Assembly (NCBI GenBank): GCA_038128225.1
Contig: JAYPJF010000001.1
Coordinates: 240,419-304,418 of the forward strand
Source: a bacterium
GTDB lineage: Bacteria; Patescibacteriota; Minisyncoccia; Phycocordibacterales; UBA2100
Length of the DNA: 64,000 nt
Reading direction: 5' to 3'
The notes under the pieces are model-generated. The model was not told where the DNA came from. It made no database searches and saw only the letters and a list, made by a program, of their open reading frames with translations. Positions 1 to 62,084 of this stretch are shown piece after piece. How positions within the stretch are numbered: the first letter of the stretch is position 1; the number at the start of each line of letters is the position of its first letter. The translations under genes were made by a program, and so were the position numbers.

Positions 1-8
1 GCGCGCCG

Positions 9-3000
9 ATGATAAGTCATGCAGTGCCGCCACCACCTGGCGGAGCTCCGACACCGTCAACCGCAGCTCCAACAGAAGGATCCACGGAAACAAGTGAAGA
101 CGCGGCAAACAAAGGCGAAAAAAAACCGGAAACAGCCGTAAAGGAAGAAAACGACCCATGCAAAAAAGCTCCAAATTCTGTTGAGTGCGAGAATCAGCTT
201 AAGTCAGGAAAAAAACCAAAATGTGGAACCGTTACGTATCAGCTTCCAGACGGGAGCAGTATTAAGTGTGCAAAAGCTGCTCCAAAAAATGGTAGTTGTA
301 CACAAGACACCAGCGCAAAAGTCTGTTCACAGACGGATCTTGGGCGTGGCGAAACCTATCCAGGAAGTGCCGATACCAATCCAACATACAAACCGCCTTC
401 GACCGGGGAGGCGAGCGTTGATCCAGGCGACGCGTTTGGGGAAGTAGATCCTGGAGAAAGTTATGGATTTGACCCTGACTTCGACCCCGGAAAGGCAATA
501 GAAGAATCTGGCTCTATCAAACCGGGTGTTTCAGGGACCACAGAAACACCTGAAATAAAATACGCCTCCCCAGAAGAGTTTTTATATAACGGCAGTAAGC
601 CATCAGCTGAATTTGTTCAAGCAGCACTAAAGAGTCTGGGTCCGGGAGGCAGCTTTACGCCGCTCTCGAATTTTAGTAGCGATTTATCATCGTTCTATTT
701 TCCACCTTCTTCTGGGTTGGGAAGTGTGCGACTTGATCCAACTATAGATTATGGTTCATTCGGCTCTTTTACCGCACCATCAACATTTTCAGCTATGCCG
801 CGCGCTGTTCCTACTGTGCCGGTAACTGACTTTCAAACATTCGCACCCCCCTCGATAACATATTCATCACTGGCGGGTTCTGATTTTGCTTTTGATCCAG
901 CAACAGGACTGTGGGCCGATGGGCTCGGGGCCATATCCGACACCGGGTCTCCGTTCGGCCGTGTGGTTTTTGAAGACCCGTCTGTTGGGACAGGTTTCTC
1001 CTTTTCGAGCGCTGCGGGATTTCCTGAGGCAGCACTTACCGGGACCGCTATTGATGTTGAGAAAGGTGGCGCTGGCGCATTGTCTGCACTCGAAGGAACC
1101 GCAGCGGATTACTTTGGAACAGCAGGTACCGATTTATCAAAAGCGTTCGATTTGAATAGCCAAGCAGGTATCACTGTTATTGCCGATACCGCAGTGGCAA
1201 CAGAAGTCCCGGGCACGTTTCTTGCGGATCCAAAAGTAACACTCGCCGATATCACCGGTGCAGTCCTTAAAGGAGATTTATTTGAAGGCGGTCGCTTGAT
1301 TGGGCAGGGCGTGCGCGGATTATATGGAGACTTGGCGCGACGGTTCGAAGGCGCGTCGGATTTATTCGCGAGTTACTTACCGTGGACACAGAATACCCTC
1401 ACTACACTAGATGGAGTAGATGAGTTTGCACCAGGAACCATCCTTGGGGGGTTCGATAGTATCGGTACTGAATCTGTAAATGGAATACCAGGGTATGAAT
1501 CCCCTTTAACGAGTGAGTTTGTGATAATCGACGCCACGGGGGACATTGTCTCGGTGACATCGGCGCCGACACAAAATTTTCCCACAACCATCGATGACCT
1601 TATCGCAGTAGGCGAAGCGCGCGGGGTGAGCGGTGAAAGTTACGACCCAAAAACAGGTACGTATAGTTACGATCCGGAGCAAGAAGGCGGATTGGTTCCA
1701 GGAGTAAGTTTTGCAAGTGCGGACGAAGTTGCCGCACCTGTTAATTCTGAAATACAAAACCCTGAGATGGGAGGATCTGCGGCGCGAAAAGCGTGGAATG
1801 ACTATATTGACGCGTCTTCGAGACTCGCGCAGCTTGAAGCGTCTTCCGTGTCTGATCCGCTTGCAGTTGCGGGGTACGAACGGGAATTGGAAGCGGCTCG
1901 AGCGCGTGTTGCCGCACTTGATCCTTCACGATCGAGACTGAGTATTTCGGATCAATACTTTAGAACCGCCGCGGTTGATTTTGACGCGCTGGAACAGCAG
2001 GCAGTCGAAGACCCAAATACATTATTCGGGACAGATTTTACTCCGAATCCAGAAAACGCAGCTGCTGTTCGGCGACTCGTTGATTACAACAACGCAATTG
2101 CAACAGATCAGGCTATCTTCTCTCAAAAAGTTAAACACCTCAATGCGTTGGTTGCTGATAACGAGCTTATGTACAACATGCAGGATGCTATTAAAACTGA
2201 ATTGGCGCGAGAACGATCAGAAAGTTTTTGGAAAAGCGCACTTGAACTGAATACACTGAACCCTTGGGGTGATTTTCGACACCAACAACTCGAAGAGCTC
2301 CAAGGCGCTATCGACACAAACATCGGTCTCATCGATTGGGCCTCGGGATCATGCCCGGAATGTTATGACGCGCTTTATGGTACGGCTGCAGATACTCAAG
2401 CAGAGGTAGTCGCACAGAAACAATTGCTCCAATATGCACGAGATAGAGGCGGCTCAGTCACAAAATGGGAGCTGGCACGTGTTACCGACGATTTTGGTAA
2501 TTTAATCGGGTCACCACCATCACCTGAAGAGTACGCGCGGAATGTGTGGGGCGTCGGGGTTGATGAGACAGGTGTGCCGATAGTACCTGCGCTGGAAACA
2601 AAACGAAGTGAAGCAGGCCAGCTCGCGAATTACGTTTTAACCGGACAAACTCCAGCAGACCCGACTCTTGCAGCAGAGTTGGTTGCAGCAACCGGGGGTG
2701 CTGAACGGGATGCGCGTCGCGCAGTCGTTGACGATACGGTTCCGTGGTTTTCTAAACCAATTACATGGCTTAACAATCAAGCCGAAGCACTGAATGAGTA
2801 CGCTGTTCAGCCGTGGCACTACGATCCGGAATCAGGAACGATTATTGAGCATTCAATAGGGGGCCGCGTTTTGGGATTTGTTGGAGGCGCATTAGCTGAC
2901 GAGGTTGCAGGAGTCGGTCAATCTGTGGGTATATATGGGGAGAATCTTTTTGGCACAGAGGGAGCTCCAAACATGACAACGTTATTAAGCGAGGCCGAAG

Positions 3001-6000
3001 CAAGTAGAAGAATGATTCGCACACTACCTCAGAACATACTCGTAGATACTGGGGAAGCGGCACTTACAGCGTTCGATATTGCAGTCCCGTACGTTGGTGT
3101 GGGTCCTGATATGTGGAGAGTGGGAAAAAGCGCGGCGTCTGCGATAGGGGTCCGAATCGCCGAAGGGCCAGCACTCGCTCCTCCTGGGTTTGGGTGGCTT
3201 GTGCGCGGGGCGGAAAGCTTAGCTCCTCCGCCGATAAGTCTTGGTACCTTGAGTCCAGAGGTTGCGGTAGTATCACCGAGCGCGTTTCCGGCTACCCCAG
3301 GTGTGGCTGCCGATTACGCACCAGTAGTAATTAGCGGGCGATCAGGAGCAACCGCTACGGTACCTCCAGCACCGAGAGTGAGCGCGGCGGATTCATTGAT
3401 GGGGTCGGGTGGCCCTTCGCTTAGTAGCGGCATATCTCCTGCAGTGGTTAAGAATACTGCTCCTTCTGCAAGAAAGATTTCTGATACACCAGCGGTGCCG
3501 CGCGCGGGTTCAGCTCCCGCTAGTAGTGTGAGCGTGCCTGAGCTTGGCGACTTGGCAGGCGCAGAGACCGGCCCATTTTCGACATCATTGTTTCCTCGTG
3601 TTCGTGAAGCGTGGAGAGAATTCGGAGCACCCATAAGAATGCCTTCTTCAGCAGCGTTTTCGCCGAGCCCGCTCCAGTTATTAGAAGGGGCATCAGAAGG
3701 ATTAGGAGGAGTGGTTAAGCTTGGGCAGGCTGTGGCAAGCGATGTGTATGATCTTGGGGTACGGGCGTTTGGTTTGGCGGAAGCACCTTCGCCTACAGTA
3801 TTATTTCCAACGCCAGCAAGTGTCGACGAAATTGTAAAACTTGCAGAACAGGCTGACGGTCTGGCTGTTATTGCTGCTGGCAGCTCTGACTTTGCTGCAA
3901 GCGCACGCTTCAGTGAAGCGAGGGCATTGCTAAACCAGGCGCTCGAAAGTTTTAAGGCGGGAGATACCGGTGTTGCTGCTCAGCTTGCGAGAGAGGGAGC
4001 GGAAAAACTCGACACGGGGGCGCGAATTTTTGCACCAAACGCCGCCGAGAATGGACTCAATGCGTTTATCGCGCACGTCGACGAAGTGAGACTTTCAAGT
4101 GTCGCAGAAGTGCCCGTGGCCCCCGTAATGCCGGCAGGGGGATCTCTTACAGGAGCGGGTCGCGACTTATCAACAGGATCTCGTGTCTCTGGTCTTAATG
4201 TTGTTGCTGAACCTGAAGGGCTTGGGAGCGGGGGGGTGCGCGCCGCGGCTGATGTTTCAACAACTCCATCACCAAACGCGCTCATAGATGACTCGATAGG
4301 CACGCCGTCGCTTGGTGAGGGTGTGACCAATAATCCCACACTCAACCGACTTCTTGGCTATCGTGGCCCGAAAGGCGAGACACTACATTTGGTGGAAGAA
4401 GGGTGGAACCTTGCTCTTAACAAGGACCTCCCATTTACATACCCTGATTCTCGAGCGTTTCCTCGTGCTCAAAGACCTGAATATACGCGTAATCTCGATG
4501 ACCTCATAAAGACCGTAGTCGATGATGTTAATGGCCCCATAATTTCTGACACGTTTGCAAGTCATGCTGAGCGAAGTATATGGAGGTATCAAATTCTCGA
4601 ACCCCTCGATCCGGAGGCTGCCATGCTGCTACAAAGAAACTTTTTACGGACAAATCGTTTTTCTTCCATACGTTCTGCAATGGAGACTGTTATTGGGGGT
4701 TCGGAAAGATATGGCGTCAATTCAGCTTTTGTACAGAATTTAAAAAATGCAGTTGCAAAAATCGAGGATTTGCAAGCAGGGTACGAACAATTGCCTCTAG
4801 CACAAAAGGTCGAGCGGGCGAGGGCGATCCGAAGCATAGCCAAAGAAGCATTTATTGACGAAGTTGCTCCATATCTTAAAAATGCTCCGCTGACGAATAC
4901 CGGAGAAGGTTCGTTGATACCAACGACCGTCCCAAGCGAGACTGCGCAAAAGTCTTTAGTGGGGCGGGTGATGGAAACGGCGCGTACTTCGGTACTTGCC
5001 GCATTTTTGCTTACAAACGGTGATGTGTTGGCGCGTCCCTTTACAATGCTCGATGACGCCCTCGGCGTTCCGATGGTATCAAGAGTGGTAGACGATGTTT
5101 TTGGAATAAACCCTGCTGCTGCGGCGGACGGAAACCCTGCTGATATTGGGGTGATGAAAAGTGCGATTGGTAAACTCAAAGGACAAGGCACGCTCGACGA
5201 GCTTTCGTTGATCCGAAACGATCCTGAACGTTTAGCTATTGTCATGAGCACTGTATACGATGAGCTTGAAAGCGCGGGGCGGCTGGCACCTCAATTCAAA
5301 AGTAAAAAAGAGTTTTTTGCATTTGCAAATGCAATGATTACGCGCGAAATAGAAGTTCCGTCGCTTGCAAGCTTTGGCATAAACGGCTCCGGGCTAGGGC
5401 AGTTAACCGGAACGGGTATCAGGGGGGTGTGGGGGACAGACCTCCCATACGCCATGTCGATTATTCGAAGAAACGATTCGGTCAATTTAGTAACTTCGCT
5501 CACTTTGCTCAACAAAGAAGTCTTGGAAAATGGAACGCTCTACTTGGGGGCGCGAGGATACAATGGGAACCCTGTACTCAGAAATGCGTATGGCAAACAA
5601 GTCGTTGAACTAACGGTAATGTATGAAAATGCGCTTGATACTGTGTTTGTTACTCCCGATGCGGCAATAGAAGAAACATTAGGTGCTGCACGGCGATACG
5701 CGCCAAAGACCGCCGAAGCGGGTGAATGGGCCGAAGTAATTCGGGCGCAAGCGCGGATTCTCGGGGGAACCGATATGGAACCAATACTTGTTGCGGGGAG
5801 ATCTGCGAATACTCCTATGGGGCCGATTTTAGCCTCGCTCGCTCCTCCGCAACCGATAGAAATAGTACCGGTGAGCGCGGTTGGTGGAGGAAAGGTTGTT
5901 GTGGGCAATACCCCCGCCGTTACACCAGGAGTCACCGCAGTAGTCGCCCGGACTGAAAGCGGTGTCAATACCGGAGTACGCGCCTCTGCTTCTACACCTA

Positions 6001-9000
6001 CGCTTGCGGCTTTAATAGAGGAAGGCACAGAGGCTCTACGAACCCTTACTGGATTGCCGAGGGCGTTGGTTGACGAAGTACCGGCGAGAGCGCCAACGCC
6101 AGTAGAATCTTCAGGTTCTCTTGTCGCGTTGCGACCACGCACACCTCGTGTGGAGGGGCTTCCAGAAAGCATTGCCGCAAGAGCAGATGAGACTGGGGAA
6201 GGTGCGTTACTTGGAGTGCCAGATGAATTATCGAGTGGAACAGTGAATGGTGGCGCGGCGTCTTTCAAGAATCTTTTGGATCGAGCTGATGGCATCGTTT
6301 TCAGCGGTACTGTGGACGACGGTATCGGTGCAGGCGCGTCCCTCGACGATGTTTCTAGCGCTGGCGTGGAGAGTATCGCGCGGCGATTTGCACCAAAGCC
6401 ACCTTCGACTTTAGCAGCAGAGAGGCCGTCGCTATTCAGTCGCTTTTTTGGAGACCGGGGCGCAGAAAGTGTTTCGGCGGTTGATGTCGATGCCGCAATT
6501 CGTGGGCTAGGACCAAGAGGGACAACAGGTATCATCGATGAGCCCATAGGGAGCGCATCGGTTGGCGTGTCAGAAAACGTGATTGGTGATGTCGCTGTGA
6601 TTGGTGATGAGCTTGGTGAGCTCCCGGCATTTTTGAGGGGTGGGGATCTGCCCCCGAATGTTCAAGGAGTATTGGATTCGCTCACGCCTGATGCAGTAGA
6701 GATTGAGGCGATCCCAGCCTCTACTGGCCGAGCACTCGCGGTGCTGGGATCGGCGCCTGAAGAGATTGTGTTATCTAGCCGGTGGCTCGACGCAGAGGCA
6801 CGTCTTCTAAAAGCGCAAACAGGCACGGTGGGCGAAGGGGTTATCGCGCTCCCAGATCTGGGCGTTGTCGATGAGGTAGTTGATTTAGCGAGATTTATCG
6901 AAGATCCGATTGGCGCAGGGGCATTGTTGCCTGAGCCTCGAGTTACAACGGCTCGACCAACAGTAGGGACGTCTTTCGACGATACAGTGCGCGACATGAC
7001 GGAGCGGGCAGGTCGGGCGGCAGCAGCCGACCTAGCAGGCACTCTTAACGCACGCGCTGACGCGCTTATGAAAGAAGCAGCAGCAGCGCGGGCGTATGTA
7101 ACCAGTATTGATTCATACGGCATGACGCCTCGCGCACGCATTTTTGAGAGCGCGAGCGCTTCGTACGATGTTGCAGCGCGAGAAATGCGAGAGGCGGCGA
7201 TTCGACTCGATGAAACACTCGCGCTATCGCTTGATGACGCTGTGGAACTCGGGCGCGATGCAGAACGCGCGGCGTTGCGTGGTCGTGAAGCAGCGATCGA
7301 GGCCTATCGATTGGCGCAAATCGGACGATTTGCTGACGATGCGGTAGTGCTAAGAGAACTCGGGATAACACCAACTATCGCGGCTGATGTAGCTCCACTA
7401 AGTAGTGCGTTTCGATCGCTTGAGGCAGTCCCAACAAGTCATGCGGTGCTCGCCGGGGTACCGGGAGGTCCGACAAGCGGAGCGCTTTCAGATGGAGTTG
7501 CCCGGATGGCCGAAAGTATCGGGGGTGCGGGGCAGTCACTGCGCCAGTGGGTTACAAGGACTCTTCAAGATAGCGCTGTGTCACTGGATTCAATGACTCG
7601 CTCGGCGCTCGCCTATCGAAATATTTTTGACAACCTCCTCGAAAGAGGAGCGGCAAGTTCGGAGCGGGGTTTTGCAAACATCGACAACATTTTGCGGCGG
7701 ATGAACGAAACAGTTTCCGAATCTATGGATGTGCGGGTTGTTCGCGACGCGCGCACAGATCTTTCGTACGCGCGGTCTCTCGCGCGGGTGCGCGAGAGTG
7801 CGCACAGGCTCGAAGCGCTCACGGACCTCGGGCGAAGTGCGGAACTCATCCGGGCGGCAGACCGGTACGCTGATGCAGTTAGATCTTTTGATGAATCCAT
7901 TGCAGCGCTTGACAGAGCTGAACAAGTTACAACAAGCGCCGCGCGGCGTGGATATGTGGAAGGTGCTGTTTGGAATGGCACGCAAGCGCGCGCTGCTATA
8001 CAGGACGCAGAGCGCATACTTGCGCAAACCGACACTGCAGCGACCACATGGCGTGATCGCATAAAACGACTGTACCCATTAGCAGCCGTACTATTACTTG
8101 ATGATGATACAACACAAAACCCAGGCGGTATATCTCCCGAATTTAGTGAAACGCACATCGATTCTTGCGAAGGCGGTACGTGTGTTCTGACCGATATAAG
8201 CACCGGGGAAAAGTTTCTGGTAAGCGGAGTTGATTTTTCAGATGTCGTACGCTCGGGAATTGTCTGTAACGAAACCGGATGCCAATTGTATATAGAACGG
8301 GAGGGCAAAGGTGCTGAGGCGCTTTCGCTTGAATCAGGGCGTGACGGAGCCCTCTTTCCCAAGAGCGAGGAATCATTCGGGGGAAGTGGCGAAGAAGACA
8401 CAACTGTCCTAGGAGTGGCTGCGGTCACGGAATCAGACACCGGGGACGCTCTCGCAGATGATGGTGTAGCTGGCGAAGAAGGTGACGCAACAAGATCCGA
8501 TGACACAGGCGGCGAGCGCACAGACATTATTCCTGAAGGTACCGGTGACGATTCTACAGGTGGAGTAGCAGATGCGAAAGATGACGGAGGCGGAGACGGC
8601 GCATCTGACGCAACGGCGAGCGGGTCGGGAGATGCAACTGGTGGGACTACACCTGGGGTTGGTGGGGGCGGGGCTTCGTCAGGTGGTGGAGAAGGGCTCA
8701 GTGGCTTACTCAATAACCTGCTTTCGATGCTTAGCGGAAAACAGCAATCAGCGTCGGGGGGATCGGAGAATCCGGAAGTGTTACCACCCGCAGCGCCCAC
8801 CAAACCCCGTTTAAGTTGTGCTGATGTGATCGCGCTTGTTAAACCACATGGGGAGAGTGTTGGCGAAGGAAAAACAACAGTCTCGTGGGGTTGTTATGGT
8901 GAGGCGACCGCAGCGCGCGGCATAGGTTTTAAACTCGGGGCAACAGAGAGTAATAGTGGGGCTGCGAGTGGGTCATTTGTCGTCCCTGTTAAAGATACTG

Positions 9001-9569
9001 GTCAACAAAAACTCACGCTCGGTATCGAATGTGTCCGAGGAGGCACCGTGTTGGGTAAGCGCACGTGCGACATTCCTGTCGTGCGGCCGAGTGCAACAGT
9101 GGTTGTTGCGCCGTCAGCGGTAGCGCGCGGCGCGACGGCGCGCATTTCATGGAGCAGTGTTGAAACACTCGGAAGCGCAGATGCATGTCGCCTCTACGGT
9201 CCTGAGTCCGCGTTACTCGACACAGGAAAAGCAACAGGCGAAGCGTTCACGCCCCCGCTGAGGCGGAACACAGAATTCGCGCTTCAATGTGACACCAAAG
9301 GAGGCGGGGTATTACTCCATAAATTCATCATTTCGGTACTCGATGACACCGGGGATGCGGTAAAAGTTATTATCCCCGCGCGCACACAAGCATCGGTGAT
9401 GTCTACGGAAAATACGAGCGCAGAAGAATTTTTAGGATCAAACACGGGTTCACAAACGACTGGCAGCGGTGGATTCACTGGCACAAGCGGGGGTACTACG
9501 GTGGAGTTGTGTAATCCGGAAGATGGCATCTATATCTTCACTCAATGTATTCTAAACAGTTCGATATAG
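9..9569 (+). CDS. giant secreted/surface protein (3186 aa inside window; N-terminus probably continues upstream of window start)
   Basis: One uninterrupted 9.5-kb ORF. Reading frame is open back to position 3 and the first in-window Met has no signal peptide, so the gene is probably 5'-truncated by the window. N-terminal ~400 aa Pro/Thr/Gly/Ser-rich low complexity, long middle region with helical/coiled-coil-like composition, acidic Gly/Asp/Thr linker, then C-terminal Cys-framed repeats (..TVSWGCYGEA..IECVRGG..; ..ISWSSVETLGSADACRLYGP..FALQCDT..). Function unknown. Confidence 0.8.
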   Translation: MISHAVPPPPGGAPTPSTAAPTEGSTETSEDAANKGEKKPETAVKEENDPCKKAPNSVECENQLKSGKKPKCGTVTYQLPDGSSIKCAKAAPKNGSCTQDTSAKVCSQTDLGRGETYPGSADTNPTYKPPSTGEASVDPGDAFGEVDPGESYGFDPDFDPGKAIEESGSIKPGVSGTTETPEIKYASPEEFLYNGSKPSAEFVQAALKSLGPGGSFTPLSNFSSDLSSFYFPPSSGLGSVRLDPTIDYGSFGSFTAPSTFSAMPRAVPTVPVTDFQTFAPPSITYSSLAGSDFAFDPATGLWADGLGAISDTGSPFGRVVFEDPSVGTGFSFSSAAGFPEAALTGTAIDVEKGGAGALSALEGTAADYFGTAGTDLSKAFDLNSQAGITVIADTAVATEVPGTFLADPKVTLADITGAVLKGDLFEGGRLIGQGVRGLYGDLARRFEGASDLFASYLPWTQNTLTTLDGVDEFAPGTILGGFDSIGTESVNGIPGYESPLTSEFVIIDATGDIVSVTSAPTQNFPTTIDDLIAVGEARGVSGESYDPKTGTYSYDPEQEGGLVPGVSFASADEVAAPVNSEIQNPEMGGSAARKAWNDYIDASSRLAQLEASSVSDPLAVAGYERELEAARARVAALDPSRSRLSISDQYFRTAAVDFDALEQQAVEDPNTLFGTDFTPNPENAAAVRRLVDYNNAIATDQAIFSQKVKHLNALVADNELMYNMQDAIKTELARERSESFWKSALELNTLNPWGDFRHQQLEELQGAIDTNIGLIDWASGSCPECYDALYGTAADTQAEVVAQKQLLQYARDRGGSVTKWELARVTDDFGNLIGSPPSPEEYARNVWGVGVDETGVPIVPALETKRSEAGQLANYVLTGQTPADPTLAAELVAATGGAERDARRAVVDDTVPWFSKPITWLNNQAEALNEYAVQPWHYDPESGTIIEHSIGGRVLGFVGGALADEVAGVGQSVGIYGENLFGTEGAPNMTTLLSEAEASRRMIRTLPQNILVDTGEAALTAFDIAVPYVGVGPDMWRVGKSAASAIGVRIAEGPALAPPGFGWLVRGAESLAPPPISLGTLSPEVAVVSPSAFPATPGVAADYAPVVISGRSGATATVPPAPRVSAADSLMGSGGPSLSSGISPAVVKNTAPSARKISDTPAVPRAGSAPASSVSVPELGDLAGAETGPFSTSLFPRVREAWREFGAPIRMPSSAAFSPSPLQLLEGASEGLGGVVKLGQAVASDVYDLGVRAFGLAEAPSPTVLFPTPASVDEIVKLAEQADGLAVIAAGSSDFAASARFSEARALLNQALESFKAGDTGVAAQLAREGAEKLDTGARIFAPNAAENGLNAFIAHVDEVRLSSVAEVPVAPVMPAGGSLTGAGRDLSTGSRVSGLNVVAEPEGLGSGGVRAAADVSTTPSPNALIDDSIGTPSLGEGVTNNPTLNRLLGYRGPKGETLHLVEEGWNLALNKDLPFTYPDSRAFPRAQRPEYTRNLDDLIKTVVDDVNGPIISDTFASHAERSIWRYQILEPLDPEAAMLLQRNFLRTNRFSSIRSAMETVIGGSERYGVNSAFVQNLKNAVAKIEDLQAGYEQLPLAQKVERARAIRSIAKEAFIDEVAPYLKNAPLTNTGEGSLIPTTVPSETAQKSLVGRVMETARTSVLAAFLLTNGDVLARPFTMLDDALGVPMVSRVVDDVFGINPAAAADGNPADIGVMKSAIGKLKGQGTLDELSLIRNDPERLAIVMSTVYDELESAGRLAPQFKSKKEFFAFANAMITREIEVPSLASFGINGSGLGQLTGTGIRGVWGTDLPYAMSIIRRNDSVNLVTSLTLLNKEVLENGTLYLGARGYNGNPVLRNAYGKQVVELTVMYENALDTVFVTPDAAIEETLGAARRYAPKTAEAGEWAEVIRAQARILGGTDMEPILVAGRSANTPMGPILASLAPPQPIEIVPVSAVGGGKVVVGNTPAVTPGVTAVVARTESGVNTGVRASASTPTLAALIEEGTEALRTLTGLPRALVDEVPARAPTPVESSGSLVALRPRTPRVEGLPESIAARADETGEGALLGVPDELSSGTVNGGAASFKNLLDRADGIVFSGTVDDGIGAGASLDDVSSAGVESIARRFAPKPPSTLAAERPSLFSRFFGDRGAESVSAVDVDAAIRGLGPRGTTGIIDEPIGSASVGVSENVIGDVAVIGDELGELPAFLRGGDLPPNVQGVLDSLTPDAVEIEAIPASTGRALAVLGSAPEEIVLSSRWLDAEARLLKAQTGTVGEGVIALPDLGVVDEVVDLARFIEDPIGAGALLPEPRVTTARPTVGTSFDDTVRDMTERAGRAAAADLAGTLNARADALMKEAAAARAYVTSIDSYGMTPRARIFESASASYDVAAREMREAAIRLDETLALSLDDAVELGRDAERAALRGREAAIEAYRLAQIGRFADDAVVLRELGITPTIAADVAPLSSAFRSLEAVPTSHAVLAGVPGGPTSGALSDGVARMAESIGGAGQSLRQWVTRTLQDSAVSLDSMTRSALAYRNIFDNLLERGAASSERGFANIDNILRRMNETVSESMDVRVVRDARTDLSYARSLARVRESAHRLEALTDLGRSAELIRAADRYADAVRSFDESIAALDRAEQVTTSAARRGYVEGAVWNGTQARAAIQDAERILAQTDTAATTWRDRIKRLYPLAAVLLLDDDTTQNPGGISPEFSETHIDSCEGGTCVLTDISTGEKFLVSGVDFSDVVRSGIVCNETGCQLYIEREGKGAEALSLESGRDGALFPKSEESFGGSGEEDTTVLGVAAVTESDTGDALADDGVAGEEGDATRSDDTGGERTDIIPEGTGDDSTGGVADAKDDGGGDGASDATASGSGDATGGTTPGVGGGGASSGGGEGLSGLLNNLLSMLSGKQQSASGGSENPEVLPPAAPTKPRLSCADVIALVKPHGESVGEGKTTVSWGCYGEATAARGIGFKLGATESNSGAASGSFVVPVKDTGQQKLTLGIECVRGGTVLGKRTCDIPVVRPSATVVVAPSAVARGATARISWSSVETLGSADACRLYGPESALLDTGKATGEAFTPPLRRNTEFALQCDTKGGGVLLHKFIISVLDDTGDAVKVIIPARTQASVMSTENTSAEEFLGSNTGSQTTGSGGFTGTSGGTTVELCNPEDGIYIFTQCILNSSI

Positions 9570-9573
9570 AACA

Positions 9574-10038
9574 TTAGAAACCAAGCGCTTCGAAAAGCGT
9601 GAAAGTCCACGGCTCGGTAAGCTCGACTTCAGGAACGCGGCGCGCGCGGAGGAATGCGCGCACTTCTGCCGGGTCGATTCCCTCAACAGGAATAATAATG
9701 TCGGGATTCATAAAGCGAGGGGTGTCGAGAAGGAGTGTAGCGCCGTCTTCATGTTCGCGAACCCAAAATGCGTACATCTCCGGGTAACGAAACGTAAGGT
9801 CGTCAATATGAAATCCGTTTTCATCGAGTTCAAAAATAACGAGCCGTGGCTCACGCATCGCAAACATCCCAAGAGTGAATGCGGCAATGGCAATCAATAG
9901 TGCGAATAAGAAATTTTGAAACAAAATGGCTGTGAGCGCGCTCGAGACAGCGATGACGCCTAACGCCCAGTACCAATCGGCGCCACGCTCAGTATGTTTG
10001 TGCTCGGGTGCTTCCCAGCGAAGTTTCTGGGCGGGCAT
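9574..10038 (-). CDS. hypothetical membrane protein (two predicted TM helices + soluble C-terminal domain), immediately downstream of pilin gene on same strand
   Basis: ORF 154 aa; hydrophobic stretches WYWALGVIAVSSALTAILF and FLFALLIAIAAFTLGMFAM; 3-bp gap to pilin gene suggests co-transcription. No recognisable family. Confidence 0.5.
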   Translation of the reverse strand: MPAQKLRWEAPEHKHTERGADWYWALGVIAVSSALTAILFQNFLFALLIAIAAFTLGMFAMREPRLVIFELDENGFHIDDLTFRYPEMYAFWVREHEDGATLLLDTPRFMNPDIIIPVEGIDPAEVRAFLRARRVPEVELTEPWTFTLFEALGF

Positions 10039-10041
10039 ATT

Positions 10042-10449
10042 TTATGGAGTTGAAACGTTACTGCATCCGGCGCTGTAATTGGGGATCGTGTCAGTTTCGA
10101 GGCAAAAAGTTATTGAGTATGAAGACCCGCCTGCATCTGATTGGTAATCATATGTATATGTTGGATACTGAGGATCCAGCGGGATGGTTGGTAACGCATC
10201 AGCGGCAACGAGCGCGCTTGAAACCGCATCTGCCCCGGTGAGTGGCGTGCTAGCCACCGCAATAGGAAACGTGCTATTCAAAATAGTATACAAACCAAGT
10301 GCGTTGTGGAGTTCTTGCACGTCTTGCATTCTTCGAGCATCGCGACCGCGTTTCCGTACTTCGTTGTACGATGCGAGCCCGATCGCGGTGAGCATTCCGA
10401 TAATGGCGATTACCACCAGGAGTTCGATAAGTGAAAATCCGCGCGACAT
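10042..10449 (-). CDS. type IV pilin-like protein (prepilin with class III signal peptide)
   Basis: Internal Met start gives MSRG|FSLIELLVVIAIIGMLTAIGL: short basic leader, Gly-Phe cleavage site, Glu at +5, hydrophobic helix = canonical type IV prepilin N-terminus. The longer ORF (to 10575) adds 42 non-pilin residues and is rejected. Confidence 0.8.
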   Translation of the reverse strand: MSRGFSLIELLVVIAIIGMLTAIGLASYNEVRKRGRDARRMQDVQELHNALGLYTILNSTFPIAVASTPLTGADAVSSALVAADALPTIPLDPQYPTYTYDYQSDAGGSSYSITFCLETDTIPNYSAGCSNVSTP

Positions 10450-17811: not shown

Positions 17812-18948
17812 ATGCACCCCGTATCTCTGCATGAAGAGCTCCTTTATGGGCGTGCGCGTGTGCACGAACACCCTGTATGGAAGCACTGGTTTCCGATTCC
17901 TCGCGTGTTTAATGCGCCGACACCGGGAATCGATATTTCTGACAGCTCAGTAAAGGCGATCACACTGAAACCCGCACGTTCCCGCGGATTTACTGTCGAG
18001 TTGTGTGTGTCTGAAAATGTGCCCGAGGGGACGGTTGTAGGCGGATTGGTGCGCGACCCGGAACGGTTGGGGGGAGTGTTGAAGACGTTATACGCAAAAA
18101 TGCCTCACGTGCATGGTGCCCACGTTGCGCTACCTGAAGAAGGGGCTTACGTCTTTAATATGCACATTGTTGATGTTCGGGACCCGGCACAGGTGCGCAC
18201 CATGATTGAATTTGAAATGGAGGGACGTGTACCTCTCAAGCTCGAGCGTGCGCGATATGATTACGATGTGATCTCGATCCAAAATGATGGTATGGGTGCG
18301 GAGATAGCGGTGTATGTGTTCCCGGGTGACTTAGTGCAGGATTATCTCAGCGCGTTTGCCTATGCGGGCGTCCCTGTGCGCTCTATGGAACTAGAAGCAC
18401 GTTCGATTGCGCGGGCAATTATTCCACCACACGAGCGTCAAACATTTCTTATTGCAGATTTTGGGCGCGCTCGTACGGGAGTTGCTATCGTTAAAAACGG
18501 AATCCCAATATTTACGAGTACTGTCGAGGTTGGAGGTGATTCTATGACCCGTATTTTGACTGAACAATTTAAGATGCCAGTTGAAGAAGCAGAAAATGCA
18601 AAAAATGAGTATGGGATCGAACAAGCGGCAAAACCAGAGTTTGCCGAGGCAATGATTGGCACTGCCTCTGCGCTTGCTGATGAGATCATAAAACATTTCC
18701 GCTACTGGGATACAAGGCGCGACGAGCGGGGCGAACGGATCACGCCTGTTTCCGGTGTTCTGCTCGTGGGCGGTAGTTCGAACTTAAAGGGTTTGGAGAC
18801 CTATCTTGCGGGGCGTGTTCAGGCGCGCACGCAGCTTGCAAACGTCTGGCACAACGTGTGCCATTTCGATGACTATATCCCACCAGTCGATAAGCACCAC
18901 TCTCTAGGGTATGCGACTGCGGTTGGGTTGGCACTTCGCGACGTATAA
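17812..18948 (+). CDS. pilM: type IV pilus assembly ATPase-like protein PilM (actin-like)
   Basis: GIDISDSSVKAITLK near N-terminus and LLVGGSSNLKGLETYLAGRV near C-terminus (FtsA/PilM actin fold). The ORF has ~38 extra N-terminal residues, so the true start may be a non-ATG codon downstream. Confidence 0.7.
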   Translation: MHPVSLHEELLYGRARVHEHPVWKHWFPIPRVFNAPTPGIDISDSSVKAITLKPARSRGFTVELCVSENVPEGTVVGGLVRDPERLGGVLKTLYAKMPHVHGAHVALPEEGAYVFNMHIVDVRDPAQVRTMIEFEMEGRVPLKLERARYDYDVISIQNDGMGAEIAVYVFPGDLVQDYLSAFAYAGVPVRSMELEARSIARAIIPPHERQTFLIADFGRARTGVAIVKNGIPIFTSTVEVGGDSMTRILTEQFKMPVEEAENAKNEYGIEQAAKPEFAEAMIGTASALADEIIKHFRYWDTRRDERGERITPVSGVLLVGGSSNLKGLETYLAGRVQARTQLANVWHNVCHFDDYIPPVDKHHSLGYATAVGLALRDV

Positions 18949-18950
18949 TT

Positions 18951-19487
18951 ATGGCGCTCATTGTTCCTGCAGAGTTTGCGACAAACATGAAGTGGACCGT
19001 CACTGCACGGATTGTGTACCTTGTGTGCGTGATGGCTATTGCCGCGGCGAGCATGGTCATGCTCGCAACTTTGCCGGGGTATATAAACATGCGTTCAGAA
19101 AAGCAAAATCTCAGTACCGTTCTTGATGCAACAATGAAGAACGCTGAGGAACAAGAAAAAAACGCAGGACGGGAAACACTTCTCGGTAGCAAACGGCGAA
19201 TCGAAGCGCTTTCCGCAATTGTTGCGCCCACCGAGGCTTCTCGACATATTCTCGACGTGGTAAGCGTCAAACCCTCTGGAGTGGCGTTAACCGCCTTCTC
19301 GTATGTACACAAAAACGGTGAGGGTACATTGGTTGTATCCGGCACGGTTACATCGCGCGCCGCATTGTCGGGGTATGTGCAAGCACTTGAGGCAAGTAAA
19401 CGGTTTAGTTCTGTGGTTGTGCCTATCACAACATTAGCGCGCGTTGAAGAGGGCGAGTTTGACATAACGCTCTCGGGAAATTTTTAA
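18951..19487 (+). CDS. PilN-like pilus assembly protein (single N-terminal TM + periplasmic-type domain)
   Basis: Position directly after pilM, size 178 aa, one TM helix then coiled-coil; assignment by synteny and topology only. Confidence 0.45.
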   Translation: MALIVPAEFATNMKWTVTARIVYLVCVMAIAAASMVMLATLPGYINMRSEKQNLSTVLDATMKNAEEQEKNAGRETLLGSKRRIEALSAIVAPTEASRHILDVVSVKPSGVALTAFSYVHKNGEGTLVVSGTVTSRAALSGYVQALEASKRFSSVVVPITTLARVEEGEFDITLSGNF

Positions 19488-44740: not shown

Positions 44741-46978
44741 ATGCGCGGTTTGTATATAAACCCGCGTGCGCTTCTCCTTCTTGTGATCATTTTGGGAGTG
44801 CCTGGTATCGCGCGTGCGCAAATTTTCCCACCACCACCGTCATTTTCTCCCACGTTTGAAGTTACGTATGCATGGAACGATACCTCGATTAGTCACGGGA
44901 GCACGCATAACTTTCCTGAAGACGGGGTGGGGGCTGGCACGTATGGATGGCCTGGCGGGCTTGTGCTCGGTGCGTTGTACAAAGGGGAATTGAATAATGC
45001 AACAGAAATCAATGGACATTTGATGGGCAACGCCTCAACACTGGTATCGACACAGCCGAATGACTACTTTCAAGGATCGGGAAAGTATTTTGTAACTATC
45101 TTACGTGTTTCTCAGCATGCGTTTTTAAACGACCCACTTCATTTGTACAACGAATGGTTTTTGCACGGAACCACATTGAACCCCGATGCGCGGCCGCCTG
45201 CGGAATGGGGAATTTTGGAGTTCGAGGTGAAGGATGGTGTGGTGTTGTACACGCAGATCGAATCAAACTTCCCTTCACAGGCGTTAACGAGTGAATGGGA
45301 TGACGATGTGTATGCGGGAGGAGAGTCTGGGGCGTACGGGTGCGGGGGACAAGAAATCCCTGATATAAGCTCTTGCGGTTGTGCCGTGACTTCTGCTGTG
45401 ATGGTCGGGCGTTTCCACGGGGCTCTTGATGGTGTCGATGGTAACAGAATCGATCCAGGGACACTGAATGCTTGGCTCAAAGAAAACGGCGGGTATCTTG
45501 ATGGGGGTTCAGTGAATTGGAATTCCATCGCGAAGTACACCGGCAATAAAATCAAGTTTACTACACACAACAGTGTCCCGAACAACTTCGCGCTCCTTGA
45601 TGAAAAACTCAATCAAAATTTACCGGTCATAGCGCGCGCAGAGTATGGTCGCGGTGATCGATCAGCCCATTTTTTTGTCATTGATAAAAAACTTGCTTCC
45701 ACATACCGTGTGAAGGATCCGTACTGGTACAACACTAAAACGCTTGATGAGGAAGCGACAAACCATGCAGCAAAAATCCGCGATTACCTCGGAGGTTTTG
45801 ACGGGCTTCGAGTATACGAACCACACGACGGCTCCCCTTACGCATACGTTACCTTTGCGCTCGGCTCTCCCGCAGAGCTTTTGATTACGGATGTGCTCGG
45901 GCAGAGACTTGGCAAAGACCCTACAACAGGCACGGTATATGGGGAAATCCCTGGGGCTTCATACGGTAGTGATGACTTCGGGAATCCTGAAGAATTTGGC
46001 ACACTTCCCGCACATGAAGGCAAGGTCGCGTACATCCCTGACCCAGGTGGCGCGTATACGGTTTCGGTAATTGGAACAGGCGAAGGAGGATATTCGCTTA
46101 CCTCGATAGTGAGCGATACAGGTGGTGGTGTGCACGAAAGCACTTTAGAAAGTGAGATACATGCTGGCCAAATCGTTACCTACCATGCTGCCGTAGACAC
46201 AACACATGCTGATCAATCGAATGTCACTCTTGCCGACGCGACTCCGCCCGAGACGCAAGCTGTGCTTTCTGGTGAAGAAGGTGAGGTGGGGTGGTTTCAT
46301 TCTGCGGTAACGGTAAATCTTTTTGTGACAGGTGAGGAGAGTGATGCGTACACCGAGTACCGGTTCGGCATTGGTCCATGGGCTCCTTACGCCCAACCGG
46401 TGGTTGTGTCGGCTGAGGGCGCATATAGCATGCAATTTCGGTCGCGTGACTCGGCAGGAAATCAGGAAACTGAAAAGTCAGTTTCATTTACGATAGATAT
46501 GACACCGCCGGAGGCGCGCGCGTCTCTCGACGTCCAGACTAAGAAAATAAAAGTAGAAACAATAGACACGTACCCACAGTCTGCAACGCAAACGGTCAAT
46601 GGACAGGCGACAACATATACGCTTACCGATAAAGCACACAATACGACCATCCTCACACTTCGCGCGGTTCAGAAGCCAACGTTCCTCACCGCCTTCACGG
46701 CGCAGACACTTTCGTATAATGGCTCACCAATGGTGCTACCAGAAAACGTTGCCGCGTATGGGTGGGTCGCGAAGCAGGGGAAGCTGCAGAGTTTTATCGA
46801 GGATGTTTTTATTAAAGGGATCACCAATGCTACAGGAGTGTACACAGCAAAAACAAATAGCACGCAATTGATTATTATTGATCTTGCAACAAAGAAAAAG
46901 TCCACAGAAAAGAGGCAAGGCCTGGCAATTCTGGGGATTGAGACTAGTAAAGGGAAGCTCAGAACATTTACTCAATAA
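44741..46978 (+). CDS. secreted protein with C39-like papain-fold cysteine peptidase motif and OmpL47-type Ig-like domain
   Basis: Signal peptide; GQEIPDISSCGCAVTSAVMVGRFHG resembles the C39 Cys motif (Q..SDCG.A.LAM.L...G) and SAHFFVIDKK the His motif (HFVVL); later HSAVTVNLFVTGEESDAYTEYRFGIGPWAPYAQPVVVSAEGAYSMQFRSRDSAGNQETEKSVSFTIDMTPPEA matches the OmpL47-type Ig-like repeat. TATAAT at 44712 upstream. Confidence 0.5.
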   Translation: MRGLYINPRALLLLVIILGVPGIARAQIFPPPPSFSPTFEVTYAWNDTSISHGSTHNFPEDGVGAGTYGWPGGLVLGALYKGELNNATEINGHLMGNASTLVSTQPNDYFQGSGKYFVTILRVSQHAFLNDPLHLYNEWFLHGTTLNPDARPPAEWGILEFEVKDGVVLYTQIESNFPSQALTSEWDDDVYAGGESGAYGCGGQEIPDISSCGCAVTSAVMVGRFHGALDGVDGNRIDPGTLNAWLKENGGYLDGGSVNWNSIAKYTGNKIKFTTHNSVPNNFALLDEKLNQNLPVIARAEYGRGDRSAHFFVIDKKLASTYRVKDPYWYNTKTLDEEATNHAAKIRDYLGGFDGLRVYEPHDGSPYAYVTFALGSPAELLITDVLGQRLGKDPTTGTVYGEIPGASYGSDDFGNPEEFGTLPAHEGKVAYIPDPGGAYTVSVIGTGEGGYSLTSIVSDTGGGVHESTLESEIHAGQIVTYHAAVDTTHADQSNVTLADATPPETQAVLSGEEGEVGWFHSAVTVNLFVTGEESDAYTEYRFGIGPWAPYAQPVVVSAEGAYSMQFRSRDSAGNQETEKSVSFTIDMTPPEARASLDVQTKKIKVETIDTYPQSATQTVNGQATTYTLTDKAHNTTILTLRAVQKPTFLTAFTAQTLSYNGSPMVLPENVAAYGWVAKQGKLQSFIEDVFIKGITNATGVYTAKTNSTQLIIIDLATKKKSTEKRQGLAILGIETSKGKLRTFTQ

Positions 46979-48192: not shown

Positions 48193-50178
48193 ATGGAAGA
48201 AGATCGCAGTGAGGTCGAGCAAAGCAAGCGACTGCAGCATTTGCGACAAGCGATGTATTCGCGCTCGATTTCCCCAAAGTTACATATGCGCGCGCGACGC
48301 GAGCTTAACGAATTGCCGACTGATATTCCTGAAGATTGGGAGAAAAAAGTTGATCCTGTTTCGAGCAGCCGTATTGCACCGCGTGTTATTGGCGCAACGC
48401 GGTCGGTACTTACGTGGGTGCTAGGGCTTTCGGCTATCTTTTTTGTTGCTTCAATCGGAATTTTTCTCTATTACTTTGTATTTGGAGCGGGTAACTTGGT
48501 AGCAGCCCCAGAAAATATCGACATTCTCGTGCGAGGACCTTCAACGATTCAAGGCGGACAGGCTGCGGAGCTTCAAATTGTCGTGACAAATAGAAACAAC
48601 GCGACACTCGAGCTTGCTGATTTGATCGTAACGTATCCGAAAGGCACGCGTTCACCCGCAGATTTTACGACCGACTTGCCGCAGCAGCGTGTGTCGCTTG
48701 GCGCGATTGAGCCAGGCGGGCGTCGCCAAGGTACCGTTTCCGCTGTTTTTCTTGGCTCCGAAAACGCTTCGCTTACGGCTCATGTCGAGCTCGAGTACCG
48801 GACGGTAAACTCAAGTGCCATTTACGCTGCCCAATCCGATTACATGTTTGCGCTTGCCTCAGCACCAGTTTCGATTGCAATTGAGGCAAATGACGAAGCG
48901 GTAGCGGGACAGCCGCTCCTTCTAACTGCAACGGTGCGCGCGAATGCCGACACGCTCGTGAAAGATGTCGTGCTTGAGGCATCGTACCCGTTTGGCTTCA
49001 AGTTTGACTATTCAGAACCAGAAACGAAAAACGGGGTGTTTTGGGAACTCGGTGATTTGAGACCTGGAGAAGAACGAATTATCAGAGTCCGAGGTATTTT
49101 GGAGGGACAGGAGAGCGATGAACGATTGTTTACATTGCGCGCGGGCACACGGCGGAATAAGGACAGCAAAGCAATAGATTATCTTGTCGCAGAAAGTACG
49201 CATAGGCTCGCGATCGCAAAGCCGTTCATCGGTCTCGGGATCGCGGTGAACAAAGAAACAGGCGACAATGCAGCTGTATCAAAAGTCGGAGAAACAGTAA
49301 ACGTGACCGTGTCGTATGTAAATAATTTAGGTACACCAATTAGTAACGCGGTAATCGTGGCGCGCCTCACAGGTCTTAAGCTCGATGACACAAGTATTCG
49401 CACTATAGACGGATTTTATCGATCTTCTGACCGAACTGTACTATGGGACAAAACGACAACGCGCGGCGTCCTCAGTGACTTGGCGCCAGGCGCGCGCGGG
49501 ACACTCAACTTCTCATTTGAAATGCCAAACGAAGAAGTCGCACTTGAGTTGCGAGAAGCGCAGGTTGATATCGCTATACACGCTGCAGGGAAACGCGTCG
49601 GTGATGCGGGCGTTCCCGAAACATTACAAACAGTGCGCTCGCGCACGATAAAACTCGCATCAAATACGCATCTGCTCGCGCAAGGGTTTTATTATTCGAA
49701 CCCATTTGGCAGCGTCGGTCCTCTACCGCCAAAAGTGAACGAAGAAACAACATACGCAGTTGCCTTTACAATCGCAAACACCTCAAATAAGATCACGGGC
49801 GGCGTGCTGAAAGCGGAACTGCCTCCGTATGTGCGCTGGCTGGGAGTATACAGCCCCTCAAGCGAGCGTTTAGTTTTTAACACGTCCGATGGAAGTATTG
49901 AATGGAACGTAGGAGATGTTGCACAGGGAGTGGGAGTGAAATCTGCGCCGCCACGACAAGTGGTACTCGCGGTTGGGCTCACGCCTTCCGCAAGTCAGAT
50001 TGGGTCACAGCCAGAACTGGTGCGCGGCATTACCTTTACAGGCAAGGACGCTTTCACGAGTGCCCCAATTGAACTTAAAGCAGGGGCGGTTAATACGAAT
50101 TTACTCGATGATCCAGGTTTTTCAACTGCCGAGGCGAAAGTGATTTCAAATATCGAAGTGTCCACCGGACAACAATGA
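48193..50178 (+). CDS. large membrane-anchored protein with repeated beta-rich extracytoplasmic modules
   Basis: Cytoplasmic basic N-terminus, one TM (VLTWVLGLSAIFFVASIGIFLYYFVF), then ~550 aa with recurring ..LTATV.., ..VSYVNNLG.., ..FTIANTSNK.. strand-like motifs; no family assigned. Confidence 0.45.
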   Translation: MEEDRSEVEQSKRLQHLRQAMYSRSISPKLHMRARRELNELPTDIPEDWEKKVDPVSSSRIAPRVIGATRSVLTWVLGLSAIFFVASIGIFLYYFVFGAGNLVAAPENIDILVRGPSTIQGGQAAELQIVVTNRNNATLELADLIVTYPKGTRSPADFTTDLPQQRVSLGAIEPGGRRQGTVSAVFLGSENASLTAHVELEYRTVNSSAIYAAQSDYMFALASAPVSIAIEANDEAVAGQPLLLTATVRANADTLVKDVVLEASYPFGFKFDYSEPETKNGVFWELGDLRPGEERIIRVRGILEGQESDERLFTLRAGTRRNKDSKAIDYLVAESTHRLAIAKPFIGLGIAVNKETGDNAAVSKVGETVNVTVSYVNNLGTPISNAVIVARLTGLKLDDTSIRTIDGFYRSSDRTVLWDKTTTRGVLSDLAPGARGTLNFSFEMPNEEVALELREAQVDIAIHAAGKRVGDAGVPETLQTVRSRTIKLASNTHLLAQGFYYSNPFGSVGPLPPKVNEETTYAVAFTIANTSNKITGGVLKAELPPYVRWLGVYSPSSERLVFNTSDGSIEWNVGDVAQGVGVKSAPPRQVVLAVGLTPSASQIGSQPELVRGITFTGKDAFTSAPIELKAGAVNTNLLDDPGFSTAEAKVISNIEVSTGQQ

Positions 50179-61481: not shown

Positions 61482-62084
61482 ACATTCGTAGGGAGAAGGG
61501 TACTGAATTCTGGCTACGCGGCGGCTGTTATTTCTGGACAAAAACCCAGACTCTTTCGTGAATGCGATCTCGTGGCGAAAAGCTTTGACTTTGCAACGGT
61601 TTAGCGGTACCGTGTCCAGGACCACGTAGCTTGCGCCATTAGGCGTTTGCTGTGTTGGTTATCCACACGGGCAATAGTTTTTACGATGGTAGAGACTATC
61701 GCGACTGTATAATATTCGGAATGTGGGGATGCTACGTAAGTTTGTAGCGTCTTACACGTCTCTGTAACGGATGTTGTGGATGTTTTGAAAGAAGATCATT
61801 GACAATTTAATAAGGAATAAGCGAGTAGAAGTCTCGTGGTCAAAACTTCATCTTCAGCACATACAGATGTGTTCCGTCATTTCCGAAAGACCGCATGACC
61901 AAAACATTCATTGCTAACTTCGTTCGCACGAGTGCATCGTGAGCTCGAGATAGCATTAATCGTGTTTATTAGTGTCGGCATCGAAAGGTGCCAACGCATC
62001 ACTCTCCCGTCGAAGGAGAGTAGTGCAACCGGAGCTCTCACACATTTAGTAGTAAAAGAGCACTGGTTACCATTAGATAAAAAT

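Follow-up and report, generated by a model that had tools for sequence, protein, structure and literature searches.

Results

A giant secreted protein with a diverged lysozyme-like domain

In a 64,000-nucleotide stretch of DNA from a bacterium assigned to the Patescibacteriota (contig JAYPJF010000001.1, positions 240,419 to 304,418; hereafter the window), a single open reading frame (ORF) at 9..9569 on the forward strand belongs to a giant gene whose full product, here called P0001, is 3204 amino acids (aa) long. On balance, we regard P0001 as a secreted, stalk-like protein that would cleave peptidoglycan for a small-genome bacterium of the Patescibacteria type, and a long-reach wall-degrading enzyme appears more likely than a plain adhesin. 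At the centre of this reading stands a block of about 240 residues (aa 1705-1945, the SLT block), which is well supported as a highly diverged member of the lysozyme-like/GH23 superfamily and which retains a candidate catalytic glutamate (E1798) together with the G-L-x-Q and Y-N-G motifs.

As a whole, P0001 has no match in Pfam, NCBIfam or the PDB sequences, and its isolated blocks have none in NCBIfam. A tiled profile search, which had been proposed in the original prediction for this locus, was equally silent, with ten overlapping 400-aa tiles giving nothing significant against Pfam or PHROGs. The assignment of the central block rests instead on its relatives. When 1.84 billion representative proteins were searched exhaustively with HMMER, using aa 1240-1990 as the query, just eight were returned, and aa ~1705-1945 were matched by P0003 (2576 aa, E 1e-42), P0004 (1646 aa, 1e-38; truncated N-terminally by the end of its contig) and P0005 (1473 aa, 6e-18). 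Alignment of the SLT blocks of P0001 and these three proteins (alignment A1, four sequences) revealed invariant columns for E (E109, corresponding to E1798 of P0001), P-S, N-G-x-G-x-x-Q-x-T, W-G, N, N-K and Y; the motifs Y-[NK]-[GA] and NGxG[IL]xQxT are kept across the family. One of the relatives connects the block to a curated domain, in that the P0003 block aligns with Pfam SLT (PF01464) at E 9.8e-4 over profile positions 18-105 of 117, and the P0004 block does so at E 0.23.

Profile-profile comparison with HHalign gave a stronger link. Using as the target the aligned SLT domains of Escherichia coli K-12 Slt70, MltC, MltD, MltE and MltF, the family core matched with a probability of 87.7% (P 3.4e-6, score 41.8). 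By comparison, 60 column-shuffled alignments scored 12.4 +/- 2.1 (maximum 19.0), the reversed alignment scored 11.7, and two unrelated blocks of P0001 scored 11.1 and 14.1, which places the observed score ~14 standard deviations above the shuffled controls. The register of the match is also that of the active site: E1798 falls on the Glu that is catalytic in the Slt70 'ES' motif, NGxG[IL]xQ on GLMQ, and YN[GA]xP on AYNxG. In addition, an AlphaFold2 (AF2) model of the SLT block has a helical core, in agreement with a lysozyme-like all-alpha fold, and its best structural matches include the Bdellovibrio lysozyme-like enzyme DslA (Bd0314, 6ta9) and the type VI secretion system effector Tse3 (4luq).

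Several observations weigh against this assignment, or against the activity that it implies. Strict membership of the Pfam SLT family is not reached, as the best score, that of P0003 at 19.1 bits, lies below the gathering threshold of 21.3 bits, and P0001 itself has no match to Pfam SLT as a whole protein, as tiles or as an isolated block. The PDB sequences were searched with the blocks of P0001 and P0003 singly and with the family profile, and neither a meaningful match nor an SLT chain came up. The AF2 model is of moderate quality (mean predicted local distance difference test score 52, core 55-88, from four input sequences), and a Foldseek search with it was not significant. The Ser that follows the catalytic Glu is replaced in three of the four members, by Ile in P0001, with an invariant P-S four residues later; this Ile, together with GLGQ in place of GLMQ, means that activity is possibly altered or lost. 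Finally, about 85% of P0001 is without an assignable function. With regard to activity, the invariance of the Glu and of the core motif columns among proteins of 32-38% identity argues for selection on the active site, and catalytic competence of the SLT-like domain, with E1798 as the candidate residue, is plausible from these alignments.

A very rare family with a collinear architecture

The P0001 family is very rare, and its members have a collinear architecture in common, in which the conserved parts are set apart by long, variable spacers of helical and Pro/Gly-rich sequence. The four are 32-38% identical overall, and no more than 39% identical in the best block. Both P0003 and P0004 are collinear with P0001 through NPE[ML]GGSA, the conserved block, 'GT.GEGVIAL', a Gly-rich linker, two Cys-framed modules and a terminal C-x-PE-x8-C loop, although the correspondence of NPEMGGSA in P0001 with NPELGGSA in P0003 (75% over 12 aa) is not significant alone. 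Signal peptides start P0003 and P0005, and in both, as in P0001, a Cys-rich N-terminus follows the signal peptide, in this case without significant sequence similarity to that of P0001. The relatives also differ in the catalytic domains that they carry. P0004 has a Peptidase_M15_3 domain above the gathering score (28.6 vs 23.2 bits), with a zinc-site motif that looks intact when read by eye; Peptidase_M15_3 is a family of peptidoglycan-peptide hydrolases. Together, the SLT domain and the M15 domain of P0004 indicate peptidoglycan as the substrate, which is at odds with the original view that nothing in the sequence tells the ligand. A GDSL/SGNH domain was also seen by eye in P0005, at E 0.04, so no claim is made for it.

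Elsewhere the family was not encountered. A family-pattern scan of 185,579 species-representative genomes found no member, and no relatives were present in IMG/VR, among the INPHARED phages or among the PLSDB plasmids. Two metagenome loci from the family scan proved to be chance pattern matches antisense to a short-chain dehydrogenase/reductase gene. A word-index homologue search with whole P0001 recovered only P0001 itself; with the C-terminal 265 aa or alignment A1 it returned nothing, a weak negative, as even the parent protein was missed, so that the sub-region negatives of this search are not evidence for absent homologues.

A complete chromosomal gene with an exported product

The giant gene is complete and chromosomal, and it encodes a real, non-repetitive protein of 3204 aa. 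The ORF had been predicted at 9..9569 (+), with 3186 aa counted from the first in-window ATG and a frame open back to position 3, and these coordinates proved exact. An open frame of 3188 codons would arise by chance with a probability of ~1e-65, given a stop frequency of 0.046 per codon calculated from the ORF's own base composition. In a search of ~5.8 billion proteins the full 3204-aa product was recovered at 100% identity, and the gene is found in NCBI and Logan assemblies on contigs of up to 376 kb. One of these, contig L001, on which window position 1 corresponds to position 6793, extends upstream of the window and places the true ATG at position 6747, which is 54 nucleotides upstream of window position 9 and 46 nucleotides outside the window. 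An in-frame TAG lies four codons 5′ of this ATG (L001 6735-6737). The window thus falls short of the full protein, as had been suspected, but by just 18 residues. These residues supply the signal peptide that had been noted as missing at the first in-window Met, and the upstream extension that had been suggested as a check thus located both the start and the signal peptide. The resulting N-terminus, MYPRVLLLCALLVIVSAPMISHA followed by VPPPP, has a charged n-region, a hydrophobic core and a small-x-small cleavage motif, and the upstream in-frame stop and the signal peptide together define the start of P0001. The signal peptide is the sole hydrophobic segment of the protein (Kyte-Doolittle hydropathy in a 19-residue window, KD19, >1.6). 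A regular-expression search of P0001 for LPXTG, RTX nonapeptide, PEP-CTERM and lipobox signals found none. Thus P0001 has a predicted Sec-type N-terminal signal peptide and, by these sequence features, would be exported by Sec without a recognisable anchor.

A chimeric assembly had also been raised as a concern, and this was not borne out. Over 15.2 kb, the window was compared with each of two Logan assemblies from different runs, L001 (SRR26337526) and L002 (DRR685536), and showed no mismatches with the former and one with the latter. The sole difference in L002, A vs G at window position 4907, falls within the giant gene, on the third base of a codon, and is synonymous; a single synonymous difference over this length indicates that near-identical strains are present in separate sequencing projects. 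Self-comparison of P0001 by BLASTP returned the identity match only, so there are no internal repeats, and with two matching assemblies a repeat collapse or a chimera is very unlikely.

Architecture of P0001

P0001 is strongly acidic, with a net charge of about -160. Its features, given in window coordinates with the residues of P0001 and the evidence for each, are as follows.

1..23 (+): 3′ end of the sequence coding for the signal peptide (aa 17-23 of aa 1-23), from the N-terminal sequence, the upstream ATG and TAG, and hydropathy
24..554 (+): Pro/Thr/Gly/Ser-rich N-terminal region with a six-Cys cluster (aa 24-200; Cys 69-124), from composition and Cys positions
555..1814 (+): Ser/Gly/Thr/Phe/Asp-rich region (aa 201-620) ending in NPEMGGSA, from composition; no Pfam or PHROG tile match
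1815..3194 (+): mainly helical block, the first of two (aa 621-1080), with one CxxC (aa 800/803), from a crude propensity profile and Cys positions; no family match
3195..3704 (+): Pro/Ser/Ala-rich linker (aa 1081-1250), from 46% P/T/G/S in aa 1101-1200 and a coil-like profile
4413..4868 (+): conserved domain (aa 1487-1638) homologous to free-standing proteins of ~180 aa, from phmmer and BLASTP
5067..5789 (+): divergent SLT/GH23 lysozyme-like domain (aa 1705-1945), from the relatives, Pfam on P0003, HHalign and AF2
5346..5348 (+): codon of Glu1798, the candidate catalytic residue, invariant in 4/4 family members and placed by HHalign
6774..6857 (+): short conserved motif SSRWLDAEARLLKAQTGTVGEGVIALPD (aa 2274-2301), 61% identical over 28 aa to P0003 aa 2024-2051 (E ~1e-4)
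6942..8114 (+): second mainly helical, Ala/Arg/Glu-rich block (aa 2330-2720), from composition and propensity profile
8142..8324 (+): small four-Cys module (aa 2730-2790; C2738, C2743, C2771, C2776), from Cys positions
8352..8774 (+): acidic Gly/Asp/Thr linker leading into a Gly run and an amphipathic 'GLSGLLNNLLSMLSG' segment (aa 2800-2940), from composition
8799..9083 (+): immunoglobulin (Ig)-like beta-sandwich module 1 (aa 2949-3043) with four invariant Cys, from alignment, BLASTP and fold comparison
9096..9371 (+): Ig-like beta-sandwich module 2 (aa 3048-3139) with two invariant Cys, on the same evidence as module 1
9510..9569 (+): C-terminal Cys loop CNPEDGIYIFTQC, then ILNSSI and the TAG stop; the C-x-PE-x8-C loop is kept in P0003 and P0004

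Some, though not all, of the three-part composition first described for this protein can be recognised in this list. The Pro/Thr/Gly/Ser-rich N-terminus, the acidic Gly/Asp linker at aa ~2800-2940 (26% D+E and 47% P/T/G/S in aa 2801-2900) and the C-terminal Cys-framed modules are all present, whereas the helix-rich middle of roughly 2000 aa was an oversimplification: in the crude propensity profile the middle of P0001 is a mosaic of helical blocks between Pro/Gly-rich linkers, and it contains two conserved globular domains. Similarly, P0001 is a genuine giant extracytoplasmic protein, as had been proposed, but it is not mainly a low-complexity adhesin, given the SLT-like domain, the conserved domain at aa 1487-1638, and the lack of repeats and of LPXTG, RTX or lipobox signals. 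No significant homologue was found for the four-Cys module at aa 2730-2790.

The domain at aa 1487-1638 is matched by P0006, P0007, P0008 and P0009, which are 179-191 aa long and lack signal peptides, at ~1e-4 library-wide and ~3e-11 in pairwise BLASTP, with invariant columns G..D.F..H..R..WR / N.L..N. It has no match in Pfam, NCBIfam or the PDB, the last searched with a profile of its alignment (A3), and its free-standing homologues (P0006-P0009; L007-L009) look cytoplasmic. One of these homologues adjoins PaaX_M, and its contig also has PilM, a class II ribonucleotide reductase and MurJ.

C-terminal modules in P0001 and a neighbouring protein

Two C-terminal Ig-like disulfide modules, common to P0001 and the product of a neighbouring gene, are well supported. 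The neighbour is a 588-aa protein with an N-terminal transmembrane/signal anchor and no Pfam match, which is encoded beyond the window edge at L001 4545-6311 (+), ~0.4 kb 5′ of the giant gene. It matches P0001 aa 2976-3129 by BLASTP at E 2e-8, and both paralogues have a Gly run and an amphipathic helix before the Cys-framed modules. Alignment of the C-terminal modules of P0001, P0003, P0004 and the 588-aa protein (alignment A2) contains six invariant Cys, four in module 1 and two in module 2. The modules belong to the Ig-like beta-sandwiches, a fold of seven to nine strands, and P0001 has only two of them; they resemble the modules of adhesion molecules and of the biofilm matrix protein RbmA. 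The original description of Cys-framed beta-type modules is thereby upheld. The region of the terminal Cys loop CNPEDGIYIFTQC is likewise conserved in P0004 (50% over 22 aa, E 4e-4). We infer a common docking or binding role for this module in the two neighbouring proteins, for which the Ig-like fold is too generic to name a ligand. An 83-aa secreted Cys-containing protein, whose gene lies in divergent orientation between theirs (L001 6349-6600, -), was considered as kin of the 'SCxGGxC' module of P0001, and this by-eye likeness was not significant and was rejected.

Genomic context

The window is ordinary chromosomal DNA of compact genes, with a content that is compatible with small-genome Patescibacteria (Candidate Phyla Radiation). 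It encodes, for example, CofD, a Cyt-b5 protein, a methyltransferase, tRNAs, UppS, an RluA-type pseudouridine synthase, L19, NusG, ThyA, Dcd, Tmk, the Arg-, Ile- and Met-tRNA synthetases, a class II synthetase, RecO, TatD, RecA and FtsK, and S20, RuvA and a Mur ligase are encoded upstream of it. Neither phage genes nor type IV secretion system (T4SS) genes of the VirB4, VirD4 and VirB6 families were detected among the scanned ORFs of >=150 aa in the 64 kb or among the called genes in the 6.7 kb upstream, and the contigs of the relatives were also free of the T4SS families.

Immediately downstream, two genes converge on the stop codon of P0001. One encodes a two-transmembrane protein of 154 aa without a Pfam match (9574-10038, -), and the other is type IV pilin-like, with the N_methyl motif GFSLIELLVVIAIIG (10042-10449, -). 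The pilM/pilN genes are located at 17812-19487, ~8 kb from the giant gene and behind unrelated genes. The relatives have different surroundings, P0003 being encoded after SHMT and P0005 between GroEL and LemA/M48, and pilus genes adjoin none of the three, which indicates that neither an operon nor the pilus linkage is conserved. The link to pili that was drawn originally is therefore one of proximity alone.

Other long genes also occur in the window. An ORF of at least 641 aa at ~62077-64000 (+) runs off the window end and begins with an N-terminal signal or anchor, MMKTLATNKVAAVVVGLGLVLAFGFAYATPAKAQ, and a coiled-coil-like start; it probably encodes another large secreted protein. At 44741-46978 (+) is a gene for a 745-aa protein with sub-threshold matches to Peptidase_C39_2 and Big_13, followed at 48193-50178 (+) by one for a 661-aa protein with no Pfam family, and these may be further surface or secreted proteins.

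Discussion

A possible mode of action, and what else P0001 could be

If P0001 is a secreted peptidoglycan-cleaving protein, its parts could work together as follows. After export, the long spacers would serve as a stalk holding a muramidase or lytic transglycosylase tens of nanometres off the surface of the producer. The C-terminal Ig-like modules, which are also present in the 588-aa neighbour, would dock P0001 to a structure on the cell surface, either that of the producer or that of a partner, and the SLT domain would cut the beta-1,4 bonds between N-acetylmuramic acid and N-acetylglucosamine (MurNAc-beta-1,4-GlcNAc) in peptidoglycan. The most plausible target would be the host or prey wall at the contact site of an episymbiotic, probably patescibacterial, small-genome cell, and this wall might be opened for the uptake of nutrients or DNA. 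The M15 peptidase in one relative and the possible SGNH esterase in another suggest a modular family of wall-attacking effectors. A wall-cleaving reading is also in line with proposals made for Patescibacteria (PMC11665869), and a connection with cell-wall degradation has been drawn for the giant proteins of Omnitrophota, in which SLT domains occur now and then (bioRxiv 10.1101/2023.11.21.568195).

It is possible, albeit unlikely, that P0001 is instead a structural or adhesive surface fibre, in which a catalytically dead SLT-like domain would bind glycans or act as a scaffold while the Ig-like and low-complexity regions attach to the host. Such a fibre would account for the extreme length, the acidity and the Pro/Gly/Ser/Thr-rich spacers, and for two Ig-like modules like those of adhesion molecules and RbmA. 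It would also account for the degenerate motifs of P0001 ('REI' for 'ES' and 'GLGQ' for 'GLMQ') and for a block that has no Pfam match of its own; moreover, transposon sequencing (Tn-seq) in a cultivated Saccharibacterium found several adhesins to be required for epibiotic growth (PMC10633639). A dead domain is, however, hard to align with a candidate catalytic Glu and core motif columns that are invariant in 4/4 members at 32-38% identity, or with a relative, P0004, whose M15 peptidoglycan peptidase has a zinc site that is intact by eye, and a fibre of the usual kinds would be expected to show the tandem repeats, LPXTG, RTX or lipobox signals that P0001 lacks.

An equally doubtful alternative is that P0001 serves as a housekeeping autolysin and cuts the peptidoglycan of the producer itself, either as a space-maker for type IV pili and envelope machines or in cell separation. 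Most SLT proteins (Slt70, MltC-F, EtgA, VirB1) do remodel the wall of the cell that makes them, and no closer folds were found. The producer makes peptidoglycan precursors, as UppS is encoded in the window and a Mur ligase ahead of it. A pilin-like gene and pilM/pilN lie close by, and all members of the family have housekeeping-gene surroundings. Yet 3204 residues, long spacers and Ig-like modules far exceed the needs of known space-maker lytic transglycosylases, the pilus neighbourhood is not kept in the relatives, and a family so rare and fast-evolving (three relatives in 1.84 billion proteins, with identity of at most 39% even in their best block) points to interaction proteins, of which such a pattern is typical, more than to core enzymes of housekeeping.

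Two further explanations are essentially excluded. The first, a mobile-element origin, is very improbable. Tape-measure proteins are long and helical and sometimes have lytic-transglycosylase domains, so that P0001 could be imagined as a phage tape-measure or ejection protein; alternatively, it could be a T4SS hydrolase of the VirB1/PrgK type, as monoderm VirB1 homologues are enlarged and multidomain and such T4SS occur in Patescibacteria (PMC12102498). Against both stand the Sec signal peptide of P0001, its housekeeping neighbours without phage or T4SS genes in the 64 kb and 6.7 kb upstream, the PHROG tiles without significance, and the absence of the family from IMG/VR, INPHARED and PLSDB. 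The second, that P0001 is an artefact of mis-assembly or a non-coding open frame, finds some encouragement in the fact that no curated family covers the whole protein, and it has a negligible probability in view of the ~1e-65 chance estimate, the matching sequence in independent assemblies with no repeats to collapse, and three conserved blocks common to proteins from other samples.

Comparison with known systems

A wall-cleaving P0001 would differ considerably from the enzymes that its SLT block most resembles. The Family 1 lytic transglycosylases (PF01464, GH23: Slt70, MltC/D/E/F, EtgA, VirB1) are periplasmic enzymes or lipoproteins of 20-70 kDa, whereas the SLT block of P0001 lies mid-way in a protein of 3204 aa, is too diverged for Pfam and NCBIfam thresholds, reads E-[IV]-x-x-P-S in place of the 'ES' motif, and has an additional conserved helical extension of ~90 aa at its N-terminus. 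As a functional analogy we favour DslA (Bd0314) and Tse3, which are secreted lysozyme-like enzymes directed at the wall of another bacterium, as P0001 would be in our reading, although both are small proteins of one or two domains that use other delivery routes and have no detectable sequence similarity to P0001. The 'Archaeovorins' of Omnitrophota (bioRxiv 10.1101/2023.11.21.568195) resemble P0001 in being very large secreted proteins of ultra-small, putatively predatory or symbiotic bacteria, mostly unannotatable, with an occasional SLT domain and pilin-like genes nearby; in contrast, they are an order of magnitude larger, no homology was detected, and the neighbourhood of P0001 is not conserved.

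The combination of an SLT-type domain with further wall-hydrolase cassettes in the P0001 family (SLT and M15 in P0004, SLT and a possible SGNH domain in P0005) is reminiscent of PrgK, TraG of pIP501 and CwlT, the multidomain peptidoglycan hydrolases with which monoderm conjugation systems are equipped. Unlike the P0001 family, whose members have no T4SS genes nearby, these proteins are encoded in T4SS operons, have an N-terminal transmembrane anchor and are shorter than 1000 aa. Similarly, the giant non-fimbrial adhesins SiiE, LapA/Bap and Ebh are large, acidic, extracytoplasmic proteins with Ig-like modules, but they are built from tens of tandem repeats and carry type I secretion system or LPXTG signals, neither of which is found in P0001.

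Significance

Neither the SLT fold nor the notion that surface enzymes may breach walls is new. What is undescribed in the libraries searched is the architecture of P0001, its extreme divergence, its C-terminal module and the family itself. A protein that was missed in searches of Pfam, NCBIfam, PHROGs and the PDB sequences could here be placed by transitive profile and fold evidence, and the C-terminal module, newly seen, is common to neighbouring secreted proteins. A bolder extension of the wall-cleaving reading, which we put forward only tentatively and think improbable as a whole, is that a small clade of ultra-small episymbionts has a new class of modular, long-reach effectors for breaching walls, defined by the four proteins. 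Such effectors would carry exchangeable SLT, M15 and SGNH cassettes on an acidic stalk with a new C-terminal docking unit, the same unit would be used by the 588-aa neighbour, and the domain at aa 1487-1638 might be a regulator or inhibitor of the muramidase. The proposed docking unit would consist of the Gly run and amphipathic helix, the two disulfide-framed Ig-like modules and the terminal C-x-PE-x8-C loop, and by analogy could follow a logic like that of cohesin-dockerin or SLH anchoring.

If the enzyme is inactive, or limited to the producer's own wall, P0001 reduces to one more lineage-specific giant surface protein. If it is active on a partner cell, it would bear on how ultra-small episymbionts breach the host envelope for nutrients and DNA, which is an open question. 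Reviews have named surface lytic transglycosylases as candidates for this role, with few concrete, testable proteins. The giant gene offers such a concrete candidate, with a single residue, E1798, and an expressible domain of ~240 aa on which the proposed cleavage of peptidoglycan may be tested.

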